Positions 4,517 to 12,940 are shown, counted from the first letter of the stretch. The stretch: 64,000 nucleotides of DNA from Desulfurococcaceae archaeon (GCA_049414425.1 JBMSAO010000037.1:1731-65730); one strand, 5' to 3'. Numbers and translations: made by a program. The notes: generated by a model from the letters alone, not told the origin.

Positions 4517-4626
4517 GCCGCCGTAGCTCAGCCCGGTAGAGCGCCGGACTCATACGGGTACAGGTGTTGACACGGGGTCGGCCCTGAGGGATCCGGTCGT
4601 CCCGGGTTCAAATCCCGGCGGCGGCA
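4517..4626 (+). tRNA. tRNA with CAU anticodon (elongator Met or Ile2) with 36-nt intron
   Basis: Hand-folded cloverleaf: acceptor GCCGCCG/CGGCGGC, D arm GCTC-AGCCCGGTA-GAGC, anticodon stem CCGGA/TCCGG, loop CTCATA[intron 4555-4590]A, T arm CCGGG-TTCAAAT-CCCGG, discriminator A. G1:C72 means it is not the initiator. Confidence 0.85.
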
Positions 4627-4689: not shown

Positions 4690-5733
4690 GTGAGCGAGGT
4701 GCCTAGCTTCGCGTATGGTGTTGTAAAAGCTCTAGATGTGAGAGAGAGGAGTATTCACGAGTTACTTCTAGAGATGAGTAATGTGTCTTTTCAGGGCAGG
4801 GCGCTGGGGGAGGCGTACAGAATACTAATAGATATGTTTAGCGACCCCGACAGCACTATTTTCCTCGGATTAGCCGGGTCGATGAGCACTGCTGGCATGT
4901 GGAGAATTATTAAGTGGCTTGTAGAGGAGAGATATGTCGACGTAGTAGTCTCAACGGGCGCTATTATAAGTGAGGACGTATACGAGGCTATGGGGTTTAA
5001 GTACTACAAGGTACACCCCTGTATAGACGACGCTATACTACTAAAGTACAAGTATGATAGGTTTTACGACACAGTGGCGAGTGAGCTGGACTACAGGAAA
5101 ATGGAGCTGTTAATTAAAGACTTCGTCGAGACTCTACCGGATAACAGCGTGTACTCTACCGCGGAGTTCCTCTACGAGTTTGGTAAGTACTTGAACGAGA
5201 AGGGCGTTGACAGCATTGTGGCAGCCGCGTACAGGGCTAGAGTGCCAGTATTCTCTCCAGCACTAGTTGACAGTGCTTATGGCATGGCACTACTAATGGC
5301 GTACAGGAGAGGTGAGAGAGTAGTACTCGACATGGTGAGAGACTTCTACCAGCTGGTGGAAATAGGTAGGCGTGCCAAGAAGCTCTCAGCAATATACATT
5401 GGTGGAGGGGTGCCGAAGGACTACGTAAACTTAGTAACAGTAGCACAGACACTAATAGCAGAGTACGAAGAGGGCATACACGACTACTACAAGAGCTTCG
5501 AGTACATAGTTCAGTTCACAACAGATATGCCACAGTGGGGAGGTCTCAGCGGGGCGACACTAGAAGAGGCAGTGAGCTGGGGTAAAGTAGCGGCACACGC
5601 TAAGAAAAAAACGGTGCACGTAGACGCGACAATAGCACTGCCACTCATAGCGCACGGACTAAAAACAGGAAGAGTAAAGAGAAGTAGGTCGCAGGAAACA
5701 CTAGACGTAGTAGTACACGCTAAGAAGAACTAG
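4690..5733 (+). CDS. dys: Deoxyhypusine synthase
   Basis: Family-typical stretches GRALGEAYRIL, IFLGLAGSMSTAGMW, VDVVVSTGAIISEDVYEA, GGGVPKDY. Length 347 aa. Confidence 0.85.
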   Translation: MSEVPSFAYGVVKALDVRERSIHELLLEMSNVSFQGRALGEAYRILIDMFSDPDSTIFLGLAGSMSTAGMWRIIKWLVEERYVDVVVSTGAIISEDVYEAMGFKYYKVHPCIDDAILLKYKYDRFYDTVASELDYRKMELLIKDFVETLPDNSVYSTAEFLYEFGKYLNEKGVDSIVAAAYRARVPVFSPALVDSAYGMALLMAYRRGERVVLDMVRDFYQLVEIGRRAKKLSAIYIGGGVPKDYVNLVTVAQTLIAEYEEGIHDYYKSFEYIVQFTTDMPQWGGLSGATLEEAVSWGKVAAHAKKKTVHVDATIALPLIAHGLKTGRVKRSRSQETLDVVVHAKKN

Positions 5734-6310
5734 AAGCATCGGGCTCAGACTCCTCAAGATCATTAATTAAGATGTAGGTAAGAGGCTCATTGAGATATCT
5801 ATGAAACATCAGTAAGAATAGTTGAGAAAGCAAGACAAATACAATACGCTCATACATAGAGGGGTCTTTATATTTTAAACACTTGAGGTCTGCGGCTTTA
5901 ACTCTCTCAGCTGTAATAACTCTCATAGTTTCGAAAAACTCCGAGAATTTATTTATTAATTCTCCCATGTCTTCTCTGAGGCGGTTTAGTTCACTAGCTA
6001 ATATAAATGGCAAGTTCAACCTGTAGTAAACCTCAACCCTAAATCTCTTAGGATGCTCAGTAGCTTCTACTACGACACCGGCTTCTTTAAGCTTTCTCAA
6101 GTGATCATGTACTGTAGAGGGGGCGAGATCGAGCGCAGCCGATAGTTCTTTTAGCGTTAAGGGGCCGCGTGTAGCGAGTAAGTGCACAATAGCCCGTCTC
6201 GCCCGTGTCTCTAGTACACTAGTAACTCCAGTTACGGGTCCGTGACTACCTACAAACACTTTCCTACCATAGTACTCAACTGAGTGTTTCTTGTCTAAAG
6301 ACACTTTCAC
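5720..6310 (-). CDS. ArsR-family winged-helix transcriptional regulator with ~100-aa C-terminal extension
   Basis: RRAIVHLLATRGPLTLKELSAALDLAPSTVHDHLRKLKEAGVVV is a typical ArsR/SmtB HTH. Divergent from the peptide/rSAM operon. Confidence 0.7.
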   Translation of the reverse strand: MKVSLDKKHSVEYYGRKVFVGSHGPVTGVTSVLETRARRAIVHLLATRGPLTLKELSAALDLAPSTVHDHLRKLKEAGVVVEATEHPKRFRVEVYYRLNLPFILASELNRLREDMGELINKFSEFFETMRVITAERVKAADLKCLKYKDPSMYERIVFVLLSQLFLLMFHRYLNEPLTYILINDLEESEPDASSSS

Positions 6311-6378
6311 ACCTTTTCTTTAATTCTTCGTTTTTCCTAAAATAGCTTATTAGGGGTTTAGGTATACGGCTTTTAGCT

Positions 6379-6418
6379 TTTTCGGAAATACACGAAAAGT
6401 TTAAACACCCTTAAAATT
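6379..6418. promoter_or_regulatory. Candidate operator (inverted repeat) plus TATA-like boxes for the peptide/rSAM operon
   Basis: TTTTCG (6379-6384) and CGAAAA (6393-6398) form a 6-bp inverted repeat with an 8-nt spacer. TTTAAA at 6400-6405 and TTAAAATT at 6411-6418. GGAGG at 6445-6449 precedes the GTG at 6460. Confidence 0.35.
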
Positions 6419-6459
6419 ACTATCAAATTTAGAAAATAACGTTTGGAGGGTCTGTCGCT

Positions 6460-6561
6460 GTGAAGAAGGTGAAAGTTGTAGTTCTCGAGAAGGGCTTTCT
6501 CAAAGTGAGAGAGCCCAACTTCTGCGCTAAATTGTGCAGAACTGTCTGCTCTGGTTATTAA
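6460..6561 (+). CDS. Candidate RiPP precursor peptide, 33 aa (not in ORF track)
   Basis: GTG start, stop TAA at 6559-6561. Translation: (M)KKVKVVVLEKGFLKVREPNFCAKLCRTVCSGY. In-frame TAG at 6430-6432 limits any upstream extension. GGAGG sits 11-15 nt upstream. The ORF ends 27 nt before the rSAM gene. Confidence 0.6.
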   Translation: MKKVKVVVLEKGFLKVREPNFCAKLCRTVCSGY

Positions 6562-6588
6562 ATAGCTAACTAATCAGTGGTGACATAA

Positions 6589-7911
6589 GTGAAGCTCTCC
6601 AAATTCAATATGTTTTTTAATCTCGACTCAGACTTCCTCGTTGCTTATAACTCTCTCTACGACTCCCTCGTGCTTATTGATAGAGAGATGGGTGAAGCTT
6701 TAAAGCAGGGCGATTTATCTCGTGTTTTAAGTGATGGTGAGGTTTTAAAGAGTCTCCTTGCAACTGGAATTCTAGTTTACGACGATTTCGACGAAGACTC
6801 TCACTTAAAGAGACTACGCGAATCCACTTTTTCGGGGAACTCCATATCTATATTCCTCTCGATTACGAGTAAGTGCAATCTTGCATGCAAATACTGCTAT
6901 CAGTCTACGAGGCCTCAAATCGAAGGTGAGGACTTAACACTCGAGAAGTGGAGAGTTCTCTACAATCACATAGTGAAGAGAGTTGAGGAAGAGGCTAGAG
7001 TAGTCTCTATTGCACTCTACGGTGGCGAGCCTCTATTAAATCCACGCGTAGCTCTAAGTGTTATAAGAGATCTCGATAAGCTAACACAAGAGTACAGCGT
7101 TAAGAGCGAAGTAGGTCTTATAACTAATGGCACTATTTACAATAGCGACGTAGAGGAAATCTACGAGCGGGTAGCTGTCACGCAGATTACTATTGATAGC
7201 CCCAGAGAAGTTCACAATGCGAGGAGGCCCTTTAAAACCGGTGAGGGGAGTTTTGACGTCATTTTCACTAATTTGCTGAAAATCGTGGATAGACACGCTG
7301 GTAGAGTAAGTGTGAGAACTAATATTGACGAACACAACGTGGATTACGTGAGCGACTTTATTGACATGTTAGCTGACCTCGGCCTCCAGGACAAAATAGT
7401 TGCTCTCGACATAATGCCAGTGTACCCTGACCAGGCTACTAAGTACAAGCCGTTTAAAACACCTAAGAGCTACTCAGAGTACTTCGTAAACACGGCTAAG
7501 AAGTCAGCGGAACTACTAGAGTACGCTGTAGAGCGAGGATTTAAAATTGCTAAGATATTCGTTAAGGGGCCCTGTCTCTGCAAGTTTAAGTATGGTGTGA
7601 GTGTAGACGAGAAGTTAAATGTGTATATCTGCCCAGCTTACATATACGACACGCCATCAGGCTATATTGGCGGTGTGAGCGCGGACTGGGGCTTCAAGAT
7701 CAAAGAAGAAGTTACGCGGGACCCTCCCTGTGTCTACACGTATAAATACGGCCCTATATGCTATGGAGGCTGCGTGTACTTGAAGTCCAAGGGCATACCT
7801 ACTTGTCTACGCGTTCTCTACGGCGAGGACTACTTAGAGAGACTTGTACGTGCTTACGTTTTCTCCAGGTATCGCGAGGTGATCGAGCGTGAGAGAAATA
7901 GTAGCAGTTGA
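6589..7911 (+). CDS. Radical SAM enzyme with SPASM-like C-terminal domain; probable peptide maturase
   Basis: CNLACKYC (CX3CX2C) at 6874-6897 and GGEPLL. About 85 aa of N-terminal extension (FLVAYNSLYDSLVLIDREMGEAL...LLATGILV) resembling a PqqD-like RiPP recognition element. Seven C-terminal Cys including VDEKLNVYIC and PICYGGC. Confidence 0.8.
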   Translation: MKLSKFNMFFNLDSDFLVAYNSLYDSLVLIDREMGEALKQGDLSRVLSDGEVLKSLLATGILVYDDFDEDSHLKRLRESTFSGNSISIFLSITSKCNLACKYCYQSTRPQIEGEDLTLEKWRVLYNHIVKRVEEEARVVSIALYGGEPLLNPRVALSVIRDLDKLTQEYSVKSEVGLITNGTIYNSDVEEIYERVAVTQITIDSPREVHNARRPFKTGEGSFDVIFTNLLKIVDRHAGRVSVRTNIDEHNVDYVSDFIDMLADLGLQDKIVALDIMPVYPDQATKYKPFKTPKSYSEYFVNTAKKSAELLEYAVERGFKIAKIFVKGPCLCKFKYGVSVDEKLNVYICPAYIYDTPSGYIGGVSADWGFKIKEEVTRDPPCVYTYKYGPICYGGCVYLKSKGIPTCLRVLYGEDYLERLVRAYVFSRYREVIERERNSSS

Positions 7912-8784
7912 CAGCGTTACTAAAATATACCCCAATGGCGTGAGGGCAAATATAGACGTCTCACTACGAGCTTGTAGTGGCGAAGTAGTCTGTATTATGG
8001 GTCCTAACGGCGCGGGCAAGACGACTCTGATAAGGCAGATCACAGGTATACTAAAGCCTACGAGTGGTGCAGTGAGGGTTTTTGGGAGAGACCCCGTTAA
8101 ACACCACAACTACATTAAGAGGAGAATATCCTATACACCGCAACTCCCACTAACATACCCAGCACATAGAGTTATAGAAGTAGCGAAGTACGTAGCCGAG
8201 CTCTCTAATACTCCATTTGAGCGTGTAAGAGAAGTTTTAGAGCTACTGGGCTTGTGGAGTAGTAGAGATAACCTCGGGTACCAGCTGTCTTTAGGGCAGA
8301 GAAAACTCCTACTACTAGCACTAGCCCTAATTAAGGGTGGAGACCTCTTAATACTAGATGAGCCAACCGCGTTTCTAGACGTGTTTAAGAAGAAATTAGC
8401 GTGGAGTGCTCTACTATAAGAGAAGAGGAGAGGCAAGTCAATGCTCATTGTAAGTCACGATACTGAAGAAGTGCGAAGACTCTGTGATAGAGTATACATT
8501 ATGGTCGCCGGGAGAGTAGCAGGTAAACTAGACTTACTTAGCGACATTAATGGGGTGTCGAGGTCAAAGTGTACTGTGAGAGGCCTAGTGAGCTAATTCA
8601 CTTATTTAAGCGAGGTAATGTGAAAGTCTACGATGAACTACTAGTAGTAGAGTACACGCGCCTCCTCGACGCTCTCGAAGACTTGGAGAACCTGGCTGTA
8701 AATGGCGTGAATAGAGATATTCGCGTTACGCTAGAATACCCCTCAGTAGAGTACGTTCTAGAATCTCTACTCGCTAAGAGGTGA
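7889..8784 (+). pseudogene. ABC transporter ATP-binding protein, disrupted by an in-frame stop and a frameshift
   Basis: Walker A GPNGAGKTT, signature LSLGQRK, Walker B LLILDEPTAFLD (7889-8416). In-frame TAA at 8417-8419. The same frame continues EKRRGKSMLIVSHDTEEVRRLCDRVYIM (H-loop) to the stop at 8594-8596. The C-terminal domain (VEVKVYCERPSEL...LEYPSVEYVLESLL) lies in another frame from 8551 to 8784. The frame change is at the G-run 8552-8555. Confidence 0.7.
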
Positions 8785-9536
8785 GTGGCGTGGGGTTCTC
8801 TACACTAACAAAGTCTACTGTATTCTCGCTGAAGACGTATAGACTGTACTGGCCTAATCTCATATCAATCTGCGTCTTAATGCCAATTACGTACTTAGTA
8901 GTGATTTTCGCTACTGTTCCAGGTGATATCGAGGCTCTAAAAGCGGCGCTAGTAGGCTATATTGTAATGACCGGGTTTAACACGCTATTCTACATATCAG
9001 CGCTATACATAGCTAATACTTTTGAAGAACAAGTACTAGAGTCCTACGTGCTACTGCCAGTACCATTCTGGGAGGTCATCTTGTCTACAATACTAGCTCA
9101 GGTGTTAGTGAGTATTCCACCACTAGTAGTAGGACTTGTAATGCTGTTCCTCATCTCTAGTACAATTAACATACTCCTACTAGTAGCTGGACTGGCAGTT
9201 ATACTAGTAATTTACAATTCGCTGGGCATACTACTCGGCGCGAAAGTGAGGAATATGATAAAGCTAAATCCACTACTCGTAGCACTAATGATGATTACTA
9301 TAATAGCTACACCCGTGTACTACAGGCTACTCTACGTGAGCGAGCCGTACAGAACTCTACTACTACTAAACCCGCTAACACACGTAGTAGTTGTACTGAG
9401 AGCCTCTGTGGGGGTCTACGAGGGCTTTCCAGTGGAGTTCTCACTACTCTACTCCGCGTTGATCTCAGCACTACTTCTCCTTCTCACCTGGTGGAGGCTG
9501 CGTGGAGGTGCTTTTACAGTTCTCGAGAAGAAGTGA
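8781..9536 (+). CDS. ABC-2-type transporter permease
   Basis: About 6 hydrophobic helices, 251 aa. 4-nt overlap with the end of the ATPase C-terminal domain reading frame. Confidence 0.7.
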   Translation: MSGVGFSTLTKSTVFSLKTYRLYWPNLISICVLMPITYLVVIFATVPGDIEALKAALVGYIVMTGFNTLFYISALYIANTFEEQVLESYVLLPVPFWEVILSTILAQVLVSIPPLVVGLVMLFLISSTINILLLVAGLAVILVIYNSLGILLGAKVRNMIKLNPLLVALMMITIIATPVYYRLLYVSEPYRTLLLLNPLTHVVVVLRASVGVYEGFPVEFSLLYSALISALLLLLTWWRLRGGAFTVLEKK

Positions 9537-9883
9537 GAGTGGTGGAGTTGAGGAGTCTTAGAGAGGTAATAGAGTTGACTAGTAAGAGGTCGATGCCTGG
9601 ACTGCTAGAACTAGTCAACTTGTACTGTAATCTCGCGTTTAGAGCAGACTACTTTACAGTACTACTAGAAAGGCCGGAGTACATCGTGGAGATACTGAAG
9701 AAACTCTACGCACCCGAAGTAGTAGAGCTAATAGTGTACAGGGTCTTTTCCAAGCCTATAGTCGAGTTCGCGGGGAGAGGAGACGCAGTAGAGCTAGCTA
9801 GACTCACAGTGAGAGAACCGGAGTTATTTAGAAGCGAGGTAAAAAAGCTACTAGGAACTATTACTCAAGCTACTCACGGCTAA
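9491..9883 (+). CDS. Hypothetical small helical protein, last gene of the cluster
   Basis: ORF only. A more likely start is GTG 9533, which overlaps the permease TGA (GTGA coupling), or GTG 9539/9542. No recognisable motifs. Confidence 0.45.
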   Translation: MEAAWRCFYSSREEVRVVELRSLREVIELTSKRSMPGLLELVNLYCNLAFRADYFTVLLERPEYIVEILKKLYAPEVVELIVYRVFSKPIVEFAGRGDAVELARLTVREPELFRSEVKKLLGTITQATHG

Positions 9884-10187
9884 TTATAAATCTCGGTGGA
9901 GAAATCCACTCGCTTTTACAGCGAGGACACCTGCTAGGCTTTTTAGGCTTTTCTAGGTCTTTGAAGACATATCCACACTTTCTACACGTAGGCGGCTCCA
10001 TTAGGAGCACTTCTCTACCCTGAGATCTACTGCGAATAGTTTTAGCTATGTGTGCTAAGTGCTCATAGACCTCCCTATCCGTGATGTTAACACCTAGAAC
10101 TTCAATAATCTCCCTGGCTGTGAGTGGTCTACTAGTAGACCTGAGTAGTTCAATAATTCTCTCTCTTATTGTTAAAAACTCCTCCAT
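9870..10187 (-). CDS. HTH domain fused to a Zn-ribbon; predicted transcriptional regulator (COG3357-like)
   Basis: N-terminal RERIIELLRSTSRPLTAREIIEVLG and C-terminal CRKCGYVF...RCPRCKSEWISPPRF. Confidence 0.65.
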   Translation of the reverse strand: MEEFLTIRERIIELLRSTSRPLTAREIIEVLGVNITDREVYEHLAHIAKTIRSRSQGREVLLMEPPTCRKCGYVFKDLEKPKKPSRCPRCKSEWISPPRFIISRE

Positions 10188-10196
10188 AGTAGCACT

Positions 10197-10742
10197 TCAC
10201 TTTTTAGACGCCTTGTACCTCTCAATAGCGCGCTTAATCTTCTCTAGTGCTACGTCTCTGCCTTTCCAGCCGAGAACTCTAACCCACTTACCTTTTTCGA
10301 GCTCTTTATAGTGCGCGAAGAAGTGCTCTATTCTCTGCCTAATAGCCTCGGAGAGGTCTTTTACGTCTCTTATATTCTGAAATCTCGGGTCTATTTTATC
10401 AGCTGGTACGGCAACTATTTTTGCATCGAACCCCTTCTCGTCCTCAGTCTCTAGTACACCTATAGGCTTAACTCTAATAACACAGCCGGGTATGAGGGGG
10501 TCGTAAGAGACTACTAACACGTCTACTGGGTCGCCGTCTTCTTCGAGAGTTCCGGGTATAAAGCCGTAGTTAAACGGGTAGACCATTGACGTGTAGAGTA
10601 TTCTGTCGACAAATAAAACCCCGGTCTCCTTGTCGATCTCGTACTTGACACCACTATTAACTGGTATCTCGATTAGTACATTTACCTCTTCAGGCGCTTT
10701 TTCACCAGGACCTATTTTGTCTAGTACACTCACAATTAACAC
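10197..10742 (-). CDS. ppa: Inorganic pyrophosphatase (family I)
   Basis: [57 protein letters not shown]. Confidence 0.9.
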
Positions 10743-12813: not shown

Positions 12814-12855
12814 ACCAGTTAGTAGTAGAATCAGTTAGGAATAAATGAGTATTAG

Positions 12856-12940
12856 TGCGGGGGGTGGGATTTGAACCCACGCAGGCCTACGCCATCGGGT
12901 CCTGAGCCCGACCCCTTTGACCAGGCTCGGGCACCCCCGC
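12856..12940 (-). tRNA. tRNA-Leu (CAG), class II
   Basis: Reverse complement folds as GCGGGGG/CCCCCGC acceptor, anticodon stem TCGGG/CCCGA, loop CTCAGGA, long variable arm TGGCGTAGGCCTGC, T arm GTGGG-TTCAAAT-CCCAC, discriminator A. Confidence 0.9.

Follow-up and report, generated by a model that had tools for sequence, protein, structure and literature searches.

A candidate peptide-maturation cluster between dys and ppa

We examined a 64,000-nucleotide stretch of DNA from a metagenome-assembled Desulfurococcaceae archaeon (GCA_049414425.1, JBMSAO010000037.1:1731-65730), referred to here in its entirety as the window and numbered from its first letter. Between the housekeeping genes dys and ppa the window holds a compact group of genes that is a candidate cluster for a peptide synthesized on the ribosome and modified after translation (RiPP). 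An earlier note, drawn from the sequence of the window alone, had described this group as a candidate radical S-adenosylmethionine (rSAM) RiPP cluster made up of a divergent regulator, a hidden cysteine-rich peptide, an rSAM enzyme and a dedicated exporter. Our map of open reading frames (ORFs), made from the raw sequence, agrees with that layout in its flanks, its gene order and its spacing (Table 1). An AT-rich spacer of 150 nt separates the regulator from the peptide gene, and 27 nt separate the peptide ORF from that of the rSAM enzyme. The start of the ATP-binding cassette (ABC) ATPase gene at 7889 overlaps the rSAM gene by 23 nt, the permease overlaps the ATPase gene by 4 nt, and the last ORF, which had been listed as encoding an unknown protein, begins at a GTGA coupling.

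Table 1. Features of the cluster and its surroundings in the window
Feature	Position	Strand	Remarks
Candidate tRNA	4517-4626	+	just upstream of dys; 110 nt span
dys	4690-5733		upstream flank
ArsR/SmtB-type winged-helix regulator, 196 aa	5720-6310	-	divergent from peptide operon
Palindromic block CCTAAAATAGCTTATTAGG	6336-6354		26-44 nt upstream of ArsR start
TTCG-N8-CGAA inverted repeat, then B recognition element (BRE)/TATA-like CGAAAAG-TTTAAACA	6381-6407	+	~55 nt before precursor start
GGAGG, Shine-Dalgarno-like	6445-6449	+	10 nt before precursor GTG
Precursor peptide gene, 33 aa, GTG start	6460-6561	+	MKKVKVVVLEKGFLKVREPNFCAKLCRTVCSGY
Radical SAM/SPASM peptide maturase, 440 aa	6589-7911	+	MFZ8782851.1
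CX3CX2C motif of the maturase	6874-6897	+	C96/C100/C103
ABC ATPase pseudogene (DrrA-like)	7889-8784	+	Pfam ABC_tran; alignment with intact genes
ABC-2 type permease, 251 aa	8781-9536	+	Pfam ABC2_membrane, ABC2_membrane_3
116-aa helical protein, GTG start, GTGA-coupled	9533-9883	+	PH0832/NitrOD5-like
PF0610-like winged helix-turn-helix (wHTH)/zinc-ribbon gene	9870-10187	-	between 116-aa ORF and ppa
ppa	10197-10742		downstream flank
tRNA-Leu (CAG)	12855-12940	-	just past sucC 5' end
Second radical SAM gene, 396 aa	13305-14495	+

A short cysteine-rich peptide is conserved together with the rSAM enzyme

The unlisted 33-codon ORF to which the earlier note drew attention lies ahead of the rSAM gene as described, with a GGAGG before its start codon; G-rich motifs are also found upstream of most of its orthologues. 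It encodes a leader, KVVVLEKG…REPNF, followed by a core with the pattern C-x3-C-x3-C. Orthologous loci were gathered through exact-protein look-ups and a metagenome scan with a family-specific alignment of the C-terminal domain (54 loci). Precursor counterparts were located in L001, L002 and L083-L103, 5' of rSAM orthologues of 49-96% identity. In the synteny comparison that the earlier note had proposed, a small ORF ends 20-70 nt before the rSAM gene in every locus whose enzyme is at least about 49% identical and that has enough upstream sequence; over all related loci with enough upstream sequence, a counterpart lies directly upstream of the rSAM gene in all except two. Examples are MKVKTRIIVLEKSKINVREPNFCGPYCSLVCGGLIIAPD, MKSKPKVIVLERGMTNARESNFCGPFCRLVCTGYYILPN, MPQSKVIVLERGITSVKEPNFCGTFCRTVCGLIITKK and MKSKVVVLERAAVDPNGICWTLCKIFCWLQVF, and the intact precursor of L001 reads MKKAKVVVLEKGFLKVREPNFCVTLCRTVCSGYYIAD. 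Over the 33 codons, the window and L002 genes show 11 synonymous and six nonsynonymous codon differences.

A profile HMM (hidden Markov model) made from 13 archaeal peptides was searched against 38,944 stop-to-stop segments in six frames, covering 1.27 Mb of fetched loci and the window. About 50 segments matched at E<0.01, all of them on the plus strand and within a few hundred bases 5' of an rSAM gene, and within the 64-kb window only 6433-6558 matched as strongly (E=8e-18). This pattern is well beyond chance. The family consensus is a leader, [VI]LE[KR]G…EPNFC, with a Cys-rich core after it that takes the form C-x3-C-x3-C in most archaeal members. Three cysteines are the only invariant core positions in eight aligned archaeal precursors, and throughout the family the first cysteine and at least one further cysteine downstream recur. 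We took it as the mark of a RiPP cluster that a modifying enzyme is accompanied by a short, adjoining and co-conserved precursor gene whose leader is kept and whose core varies; at this locus the precursor gene adjoins the enzyme gene and is conserved with it, the leader is conserved and the core varies. Ten variants of the precursor gave no match in NCBIfam even at E<=10, and a literature search with the motif 'EPNFC' found no paper describing the family.

The same arrangement extends beyond the close relatives. Most loci whose rSAM C-terminal domain is 31-40% identical carry the same leader with a different Cys-containing core, as in MIRVLEKGVLSFGEPNFCVFNNCVFKVR, MEELIVLERGSTSFDEPNFCGVFCNPIKGGDNPY and MKRFEVLERGVLTFAEPNFCWWYMNCPIKVLSNPR. 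L113 (131-728), L124 (168-552) and L132 (2403-2973) have three or four precursor genes in tandem, each locus with a range of cores upstream of a single maturase, and L116 (2677-2999) holds three copies of a more divergent precursor (MEMEVFEEGSMGMDCVFCNPVC…) that lacks the EPNFC junction. A contig scan with the full-length rSAM alignment, which carries generic rSAM motifs, returned full-length matches of at most 28% identity among the matches listed, and no close archaeal genome among them. It did yield L013, a metagenome-assembled genome (MAG) of Lachnospiraceae with the same precursor type, and the geopeptide-type homologues L019, L033 and L012, whose precursors have no EPNFC and share with the window family the leader element [VI][VI]VL[ED]xG, probably the recognition motif of a larger superfamily. 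In distant loci too, the rSAM gene is followed by a homologous ABC ATPase and an ABC-2 permease, so very distant hosts share a conserved four-gene module. Only in the archaeal clade is it joined by the ArsR-type regulator and the 116-aa protein.

The enzyme resembles peptide maturases of the rSAM/SPASM type

The CX3CX2C motif of the enzyme is where it had been placed and is invariant in 28 sequences. In that superfamily such a motif binds the [4Fe-4S] cluster that cleaves SAM, inside a partial TIM barrel. The protein passes the Pfam Radical_SAM cutoff of 29.5 bits with a score of 51.4, and with the motif and the match of an AlphaFold2 (AF2) model to rSAM enzymes this places it in the radical SAM superfamily. 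In NCBIfam the top matches are without exception rSAM/SPASM peptide maturases, the best of them aligning from residue 1: CefB (3e-44; 151.5 bits, cutoff 600), the geopeptide maturase (3.4e-44; 151.5 bits, cutoff 400), TIGR04463 (4e-43; 147.7 bits, cutoff 525) and Clo7bot (2e-36; 125.7 bits, cutoff 600), with PapB and the SCIFF maturase also among them. Every maturase cutoff was thus missed, and by its sequence the enzyme is placed in the rSAM/SPASM peptide-maturase clade and in none of its named families. A search of the PDB with a 28-member profile gave CteB (5WGG) as the best match (E=1.4e-38), then TigE, ChlB, anSME and SkfB. The AF2 model, built on the same 28-member alignment, has a predicted local distance difference test score (pLDDT) of 88 and a predicted template modelling score of 0.88; Foldseek again ranks CteB first, followed by anSME, TigE, SuiB, ChlB and SkfB.

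The earlier note had likened the N-terminal extension to a PqqD-like RiPP recognition element (RRE) and the C-terminus to a SPASM domain. An RRE is a leader-binding, PqqD-like winged helix in which three helices follow three strands. The AF2 model has strands at residues 7-11, 16-21 and 26-31 and helices at 32-39, 44-47 and 50-59 (pLDDT ~90), and the profile aligns with TigE (8VPO) from residue 4; residues about 1-62 are therefore predicted to form an RRE-like domain, with βββααα topology at 7-59. A SPASM domain lies at the C-terminus and has seven or eight cysteines, some of them in a CX2CX5CX3C motif, that bind two auxiliary [4Fe-4S] clusters. In the window enzyme VYIC occupies residues 345-348 and CYGGC residues 391-395, and the C-terminal cysteines are C329, C331, C348, C381-x3-(Y385 in the window, Cys in the family)-x5-C391-x3-C395 and C406, with all eight positions conserved in the archaeal clade. 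HMMER aligns the C-x3-C-x5-C-x3-C of the family to the C-x2-C-x5-C-x3-C of CteB with one gap, the spacing being CX3C rather than CX2C. Neither likeness extends to the corresponding Pfam families: the SPASM (PF13186) and PqqD models did not match the isolated C- and N-terminal domains even at E<=10, so the domain calls rest on the CteB profile alignment, the cysteine pattern and the predicted fold.

Comparison with known systems

A close known counterpart is CteB with its substrate CteA (thermocellin, a SCIFF-type ranthipeptide of Clostridium thermocellum; 5WGG/5WHY); among solved structures CteB matches best in both sequence profile and predicted fold. It has the architecture predicted for the window maturase, with an rSAM core between an N-terminal RRE and a SPASM domain with Cx(2-3)Cx5Cx3C, and as in the window a short Cys-rich peptide is encoded immediately upstream of the enzyme. 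CteB has an RRE and two auxiliary clusters (PMC8172795). The two enzymes differ in that CteB is 18-19% identical to the window maturase in the structural alignment and the SCIFF model TIGR03974 scores the window maturase 78 bits against a cutoff of 425, outside the family. SCIFF precursors have six cysteines (six-Cys-in-45), whereas the window precursor has three, with a VLEKG…EPNFC leader and no SCIFF signature, and the window system has a dedicated ABC-2 exporter. The closest NCBIfam families (E 1e-44 to 1e-36), namely CefB (Cys-every-fifth, NF038107), geopeptide (TIGR04280), TIGR04463 and Clo7bot (TIGR04334), differ from the window family in the EPNFC junction and the core.

The anaerobic sulfatase-maturating enzyme, or anSME (4K36-4K39), shares the rSAM core, has the SPASM domain predicted for the window maturase and is a strong fold match, with a comparable complement of eight auxiliary-cluster cysteines. 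It differs in lacking an N-terminal RRE, and the window system has a small precursor and an exporter of its own. A role of the anSME kind was rejected on family score and neighbourhood: TIGR03942 scores the enzyme 59.7 bits against a cutoff of 349. Consistent with what the earlier note had said of the window, gene calls and Pfam assignments for about 5 kb around the cluster in four archaeal relatives included no sulfatase or quinohemoprotein gene.

The same note held that no radical-SAM-modified peptide from a hyperthermophilic crenarchaeon had been characterized, a claim to novelty that goes too far, as bulk predictions of rSAM-dependent RiPP clusters (ranthipeptides and sactipeptides) already span the archaeal superphyla, TACK among them (PMC12144867). 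The window locus therefore belongs to a known kind of system, although its precursor family was found in no description by the motif search. In that mining study functional characterization covered only two lanthipeptides, both from Haloarchaea (PMC12144867), and a 2026 study describes ranthipeptides as 'only recently reported in archaea' (PMC13635244).

A long-resident, fast-evolving and repeatedly eroded locus

The order peptide, rSAM, ATPase, permease is conserved in loci of uncultured Desulfurococcaceae between dys and ppa, and an ArsR orthologue adjoins the cluster in every archaeal locus at this site; in L084 and L100 the module lies elsewhere in the genome, without ArsR. Identity to the window is 76-90% for dys and ppa, 49-76% for the rSAM enzyme, 38-65% for ArsR and 30-63% for the 116-aa protein. 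Parts of the cluster have been lost more than once: L087 has neither the transporter nor the 116-aa gene, and in L101 and L102, which have lost the transporter, the rSAM gene is followed directly by the retained 116-aa gene (the corresponding coordinates are 6344-6365 in L087, 4411-4737 in L101 and 4412-4738 in L102). In L104 and L137-139 a fragmented rSAM gene stands beside a split ATPase and an intact permease (noted at 898-1272 in L104, 3420-3793 in L137, 1581-1954 in L138 and 2462-2835 in L139); here the cluster has decayed independently, in a different lineage. The locus is long-resident, fast-evolving and repeatedly eroded.

The window copy carries several lesions

The earlier note had taken the cluster in the window to be intact, and here it fails. 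The ATPase gene, whose start and overlap with the rSAM gene are as the note gave them, is split into three ORFs (7889-8419, 8441-8596 and 8569-8784), while relatives encode a single protein of 296-323 aa. Alignment of the DNA with the intact 298-aa ATPase genes of L001 (rSAM 96% identical) and L002 (76%) identified two lesions: a G>T substitution that makes the GAA codon at 8417-8419 an in-frame TAA, and the deletion of 1 nt after 8553. Fragment 1 retains Walker A, the signature and Walker B (Pfam ABC_tran, 2.6e-27), fragment 2 the H-loop region and fragment 3 the C-terminal domain. An ABC-2 exporter of the DrrAB-like type would pair an ABC-2 permease with an ATPase that has its Walker A, signature, Walker B and H-loop on a single chain; the window encodes an intact permease and an interrupted ATPase. 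Programmed recoding of the ATPase was considered and rejected, given that the two lesions are unrelated in kind and that the gene is intact in the other archaeal and distant loci apart from the L137-139 group.

The maturase and the precursor are altered as well. Codon 385 of the maturase, TAT at 7741-7743, encodes a tyrosine in place of the second cysteine of C-x3-C-x5-C-x3-C; this position is Cys in 27 of 28 aligned family members, with Tyr in the window row only, and within the 90%-identity cluster three of 14 members have Tyr. When auxiliary-cluster cysteines of AlbA were mutated, thioether formation was abolished and SAM cleavage persisted (PMC8172795); by analogy, C385Y should cripple crosslinking. 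The window precursor is four C-terminal residues short through a change of TAC to TAA, close relatives ending in …CSGYYIA[DNK]. L083, a separately assembled ENA contig, has both ATPase lesions and Y385 and differs from the window at other sites, its precursor being full-length; the lesions are therefore inherited in a sub-lineage and are not assembly noise.

We compared the window with L001 by the ratio of nonsynonymous to synonymous substitution rates (dN/dS). The ratio is 0.09 for the rSAM gene and 0.10-0.14 for ppa, sucD and sucC; for the permease and the 116-aa gene it is about 0.4, although few substitutions underlie that figure. The rSAM value led us to reject long-term relaxed selection on that gene in the window lineage, and the lesions appear recent. 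Taken together, the nonsense mutation and frameshift in the ATPase, the Cys-to-Tyr change and the shortened precursor indicate that the product is probably not made or not exported by this strain. The window copy of the cluster is thus probably impaired, and close relatives such as L001 and L088 have an intact ATPase, maturase cysteine and precursor.

Regulator and intergenic region

The divergent gene encodes an ArsR-type wHTH protein, as proposed, with Pfam HTH_20 at 5e-13 and HTH_5 at 1.4e-12 over a wHTH at residues about 30-90; NCBIfam HTH_metalloreg matches at 1e-10, below its cutoff. The same wHTH also gives a weak NCBIfam match (E 9e-8, far below cutoff) to the Thermococcales heat-shock regulator Phr. 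Domain-model scans found no family match for the C-terminal part of about 100 aa.

Alignment of 11 ArsR-to-peptide regions singled out two blocks. The palindrome upstream of the ArsR start is kept in most of the 11 regions, its flanking sequence is not conserved, and it is a candidate TATA region for a leaderless ArsR mRNA, an operator, or both. The TTCG-N8-CGAA repeat with the BRE/TATA-like element that follows it is the best conserved block of the alignment; judged against the archaeal promoter consensus, it may be the promoter of the peptide operon with an overlapping candidate operator.

Permease and 116-aa protein

The permease matches Pfam ABC2_membrane at 5.5e-7 (29.8 bits, cutoff 26.9) as well as ABC2_membrane_3, and a permease follows the ATPase in archaeal and distant loci alike. 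For the 116-aa protein, a word-based search with the single sequence returned near-identical sequences only, and a profile search found 15 relatives, the few named ones being Desulfurococcaceae MAGs. Its AF2 model (pLDDT 90) is all-helical with seven helices, and its best PDB match is the uncharacterised PH0832 of Pyrococcus horikoshii (2P9X; E=0.14, template modelling score 0.58-0.68). Pfam NitrOD5 weakly matches four of nine orthologues (best E 3.5e-4). Its gene is tightly linked to that of the rSAM enzyme, which points to a possible role as an accessory or a regulator.

Neighbouring features

The PF0610-like gene, absent from the earlier note, is convergent with the 116-aa ORF, with a 14-nt overlap, and its position is kept in most archaeal loci, L086 excepted; it could be a second regulator or unrelated. 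The G+C content of the cluster (5720-9883) is 44.1%, a modest difference from the 47.8% of the whole window. Upstream of dys, an Rfam tRNA match of 59 bits with no ARAGORN call is probably an intron-containing archaeal tRNA; ARAGORN and Rfam agree on the tRNA-Leu. The second radical SAM gene matches Pfam Radical_SAM only, with a faint match to DUF1848 and no RRE or SPASM signature, and a radical SAM gene occupies the same place after sucC in L001, L002 and L087.

Interpretation of the locus

We consider it likely that the locus is a RiPP-type operon encoding a precursor, an RRE-rSAM-SPASM maturase, an ABC-2 exporter and an accessory protein, and that this copy of it has partly decayed. The conservation of the small ORF, the family and structural matches of the enzyme, and synteny all lead to this reading, and they sustain the core idea of the earlier note; its comparison with sactipeptide and ranthipeptide loci holds as an analogy only. 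In an intact copy, the BRE/TATA promoter (about 6381-6407) would drive expression of a precursor of ~37 aa, the maturase, the two-gene ABC-2 exporter and the small helical accessory protein, probably under the control of the divergent ArsR-type regulator. The precursor would comprise the leader K-V-V-V-L-E-K-G…R-E-P-N-F and the core C-x3-C-x3-C-x-G-Y-Y-I-A-D/N. The maturase would bind the leader through its RRE-like domain, as the predicted fold and the leader motif conserved alongside it suggest. The rSAM cluster would cleave SAM, and the 5'-deoxyadenosyl radical would abstract a hydrogen from an acceptor residue in the core, after which a core cysteine positioned at a SPASM auxiliary cluster would form an intramolecular crosslink. 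Homology to CteB-type sacti/ranthipeptide synthases makes a thioether the most likely crosslink, in which the cysteine sulfur would be joined to the α-carbon (sactipeptides) or the β/γ-carbon (ranthipeptides) of the acceptor residue. The ABC-2 pump would export the product.

Several observations weigh against this account. With this enzyme no named maturase family comes near its curated cutoff (151 bits versus 400-600), and with the Pfam SPASM and PqqD models unmatched its chemistry is not confidently transferable. No protease for leader removal lies within the cluster. A fixed site flanked by housekeeping genes would suit a physiological peptide no less than a secreted antimicrobial. As to the decay of this copy, the rSAM dN/dS of 0.09 implies that the enzyme gene was under purifying selection until recently, and the maturase may still be active with Tyr385.

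Two alternatives would undo parts of this reading. We give hardly any credence to the small ORF being a regulatory upstream ORF or a chance one, with the enzyme maturing a protein or cofactor encoded elsewhere. The ORF does lack a gene call in most assemblies, but it is the peptide sequence itself, beyond the open frame, that is conserved with the enzyme from archaea to the Lachnospiraceae MAG; some loci carry several tandem copies, the enzyme is modelled with an RRE-like domain, and the neighbourhood of the four archaeal relatives holds no sulfatase or quinohemoprotein gene in the range given above. It is very improbable that errors of assembly or consensus produced the ATPase's stop codon and frameshift and that the cluster is intact in the living organism: the window does come from a MAG, whose consensus can carry errors, yet both lesions and Y385 recur in the separately assembled L083, which differs elsewhere, including in the peptide, and one of the lesions is a G>T substitution and not a homopolymer indel. 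A further alternative keeps the RiPP module and changes its chemistry. The maturase might install C-C crosslinks or cyclophanes on Phe/Tyr, a TigE-type cyclopropylglycine, an epimerisation or an anSME-like Cys oxidation, which would suit the strong structural and sequence matches to TigE, anSME, SuiB and ChlB, the matches to the cyclophane-forming YhhB and GrrM families at 1e-19 to 1e-14, the aromatic residues conserved beside the cysteines (NFC, GYY) and the failure to reach any known family cutoff. We think it unlikely, because the three cysteines are the sole invariant core positions in the eight archaeal precursors, the first and at least one more recur family-wide, and the top matches are maturases of Cys-rich peptides and the thioether synthase CteB.

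What the product does is a separate matter, and the possibility next described is compatible with the RiPP-operon explanation, since it concerns role and not mechanism. The peptide could be an endogenous signalling, redox or metal-binding factor, SCIFF-like, with the ABC-2 transporter serving release or self-handling, and not a secreted antimicrobial. Occupation of one dys…ppa site in genomes with 76-90% identical flanks suggests long vertical inheritance, a dedicated regulator and a small helical partner travel with the cluster, and the peptide and rSAM genes are kept without any transporter in L087, L101 and L102. We nevertheless hold this role to be doubtful: the cluster genes diverge faster than their flanks (rSAM 49-76% against 76-90% for dys), the cluster has been degraded or trimmed repeatedly (the window, L083, L104 and L137-139), and such fast divergence and repeated decay are more typical of dispensable competition loci.

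Implications

According to the mining study, the functionally characterized archaeal RiPPs are haloarchaeal lanthipeptides only (PMC12144867); archaeal rSAM RiPPs exist only as bulk predictions. The present locus turns such a prediction into a defined, testable family, with a precursor consensus, a confident maturase model, and a conserved candidate promoter and regulator. Distinguishing intact alleles, of the L001/L088 type, from the damaged one in the window matters for the choice of genes for heterologous expression, and dozens of natural sequence variants are available, both bacterial ones and ones of hot-spring archaea. A thermostable maturase of the rSAM/SPASM type that works with a short leader would be of use in mechanistic and engineering studies alike.

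A bolder view, which we put forward as speculation and think improbable as a whole, is that the VLEKG…EPNFC peptides are a cross-domain RiPP family with a new crosslink pattern, that in hyperthermophilic Desulfurococcaceae they act as a vertically inherited, ArsR-controlled physiological factor in signalling, redox or metal handling, and that the PH0832/NitrOD5-like protein is a new accessory component. If true, Thermoproteota would yield their first radical-SAM-modified peptide natural product amenable to heterologous reconstitution.

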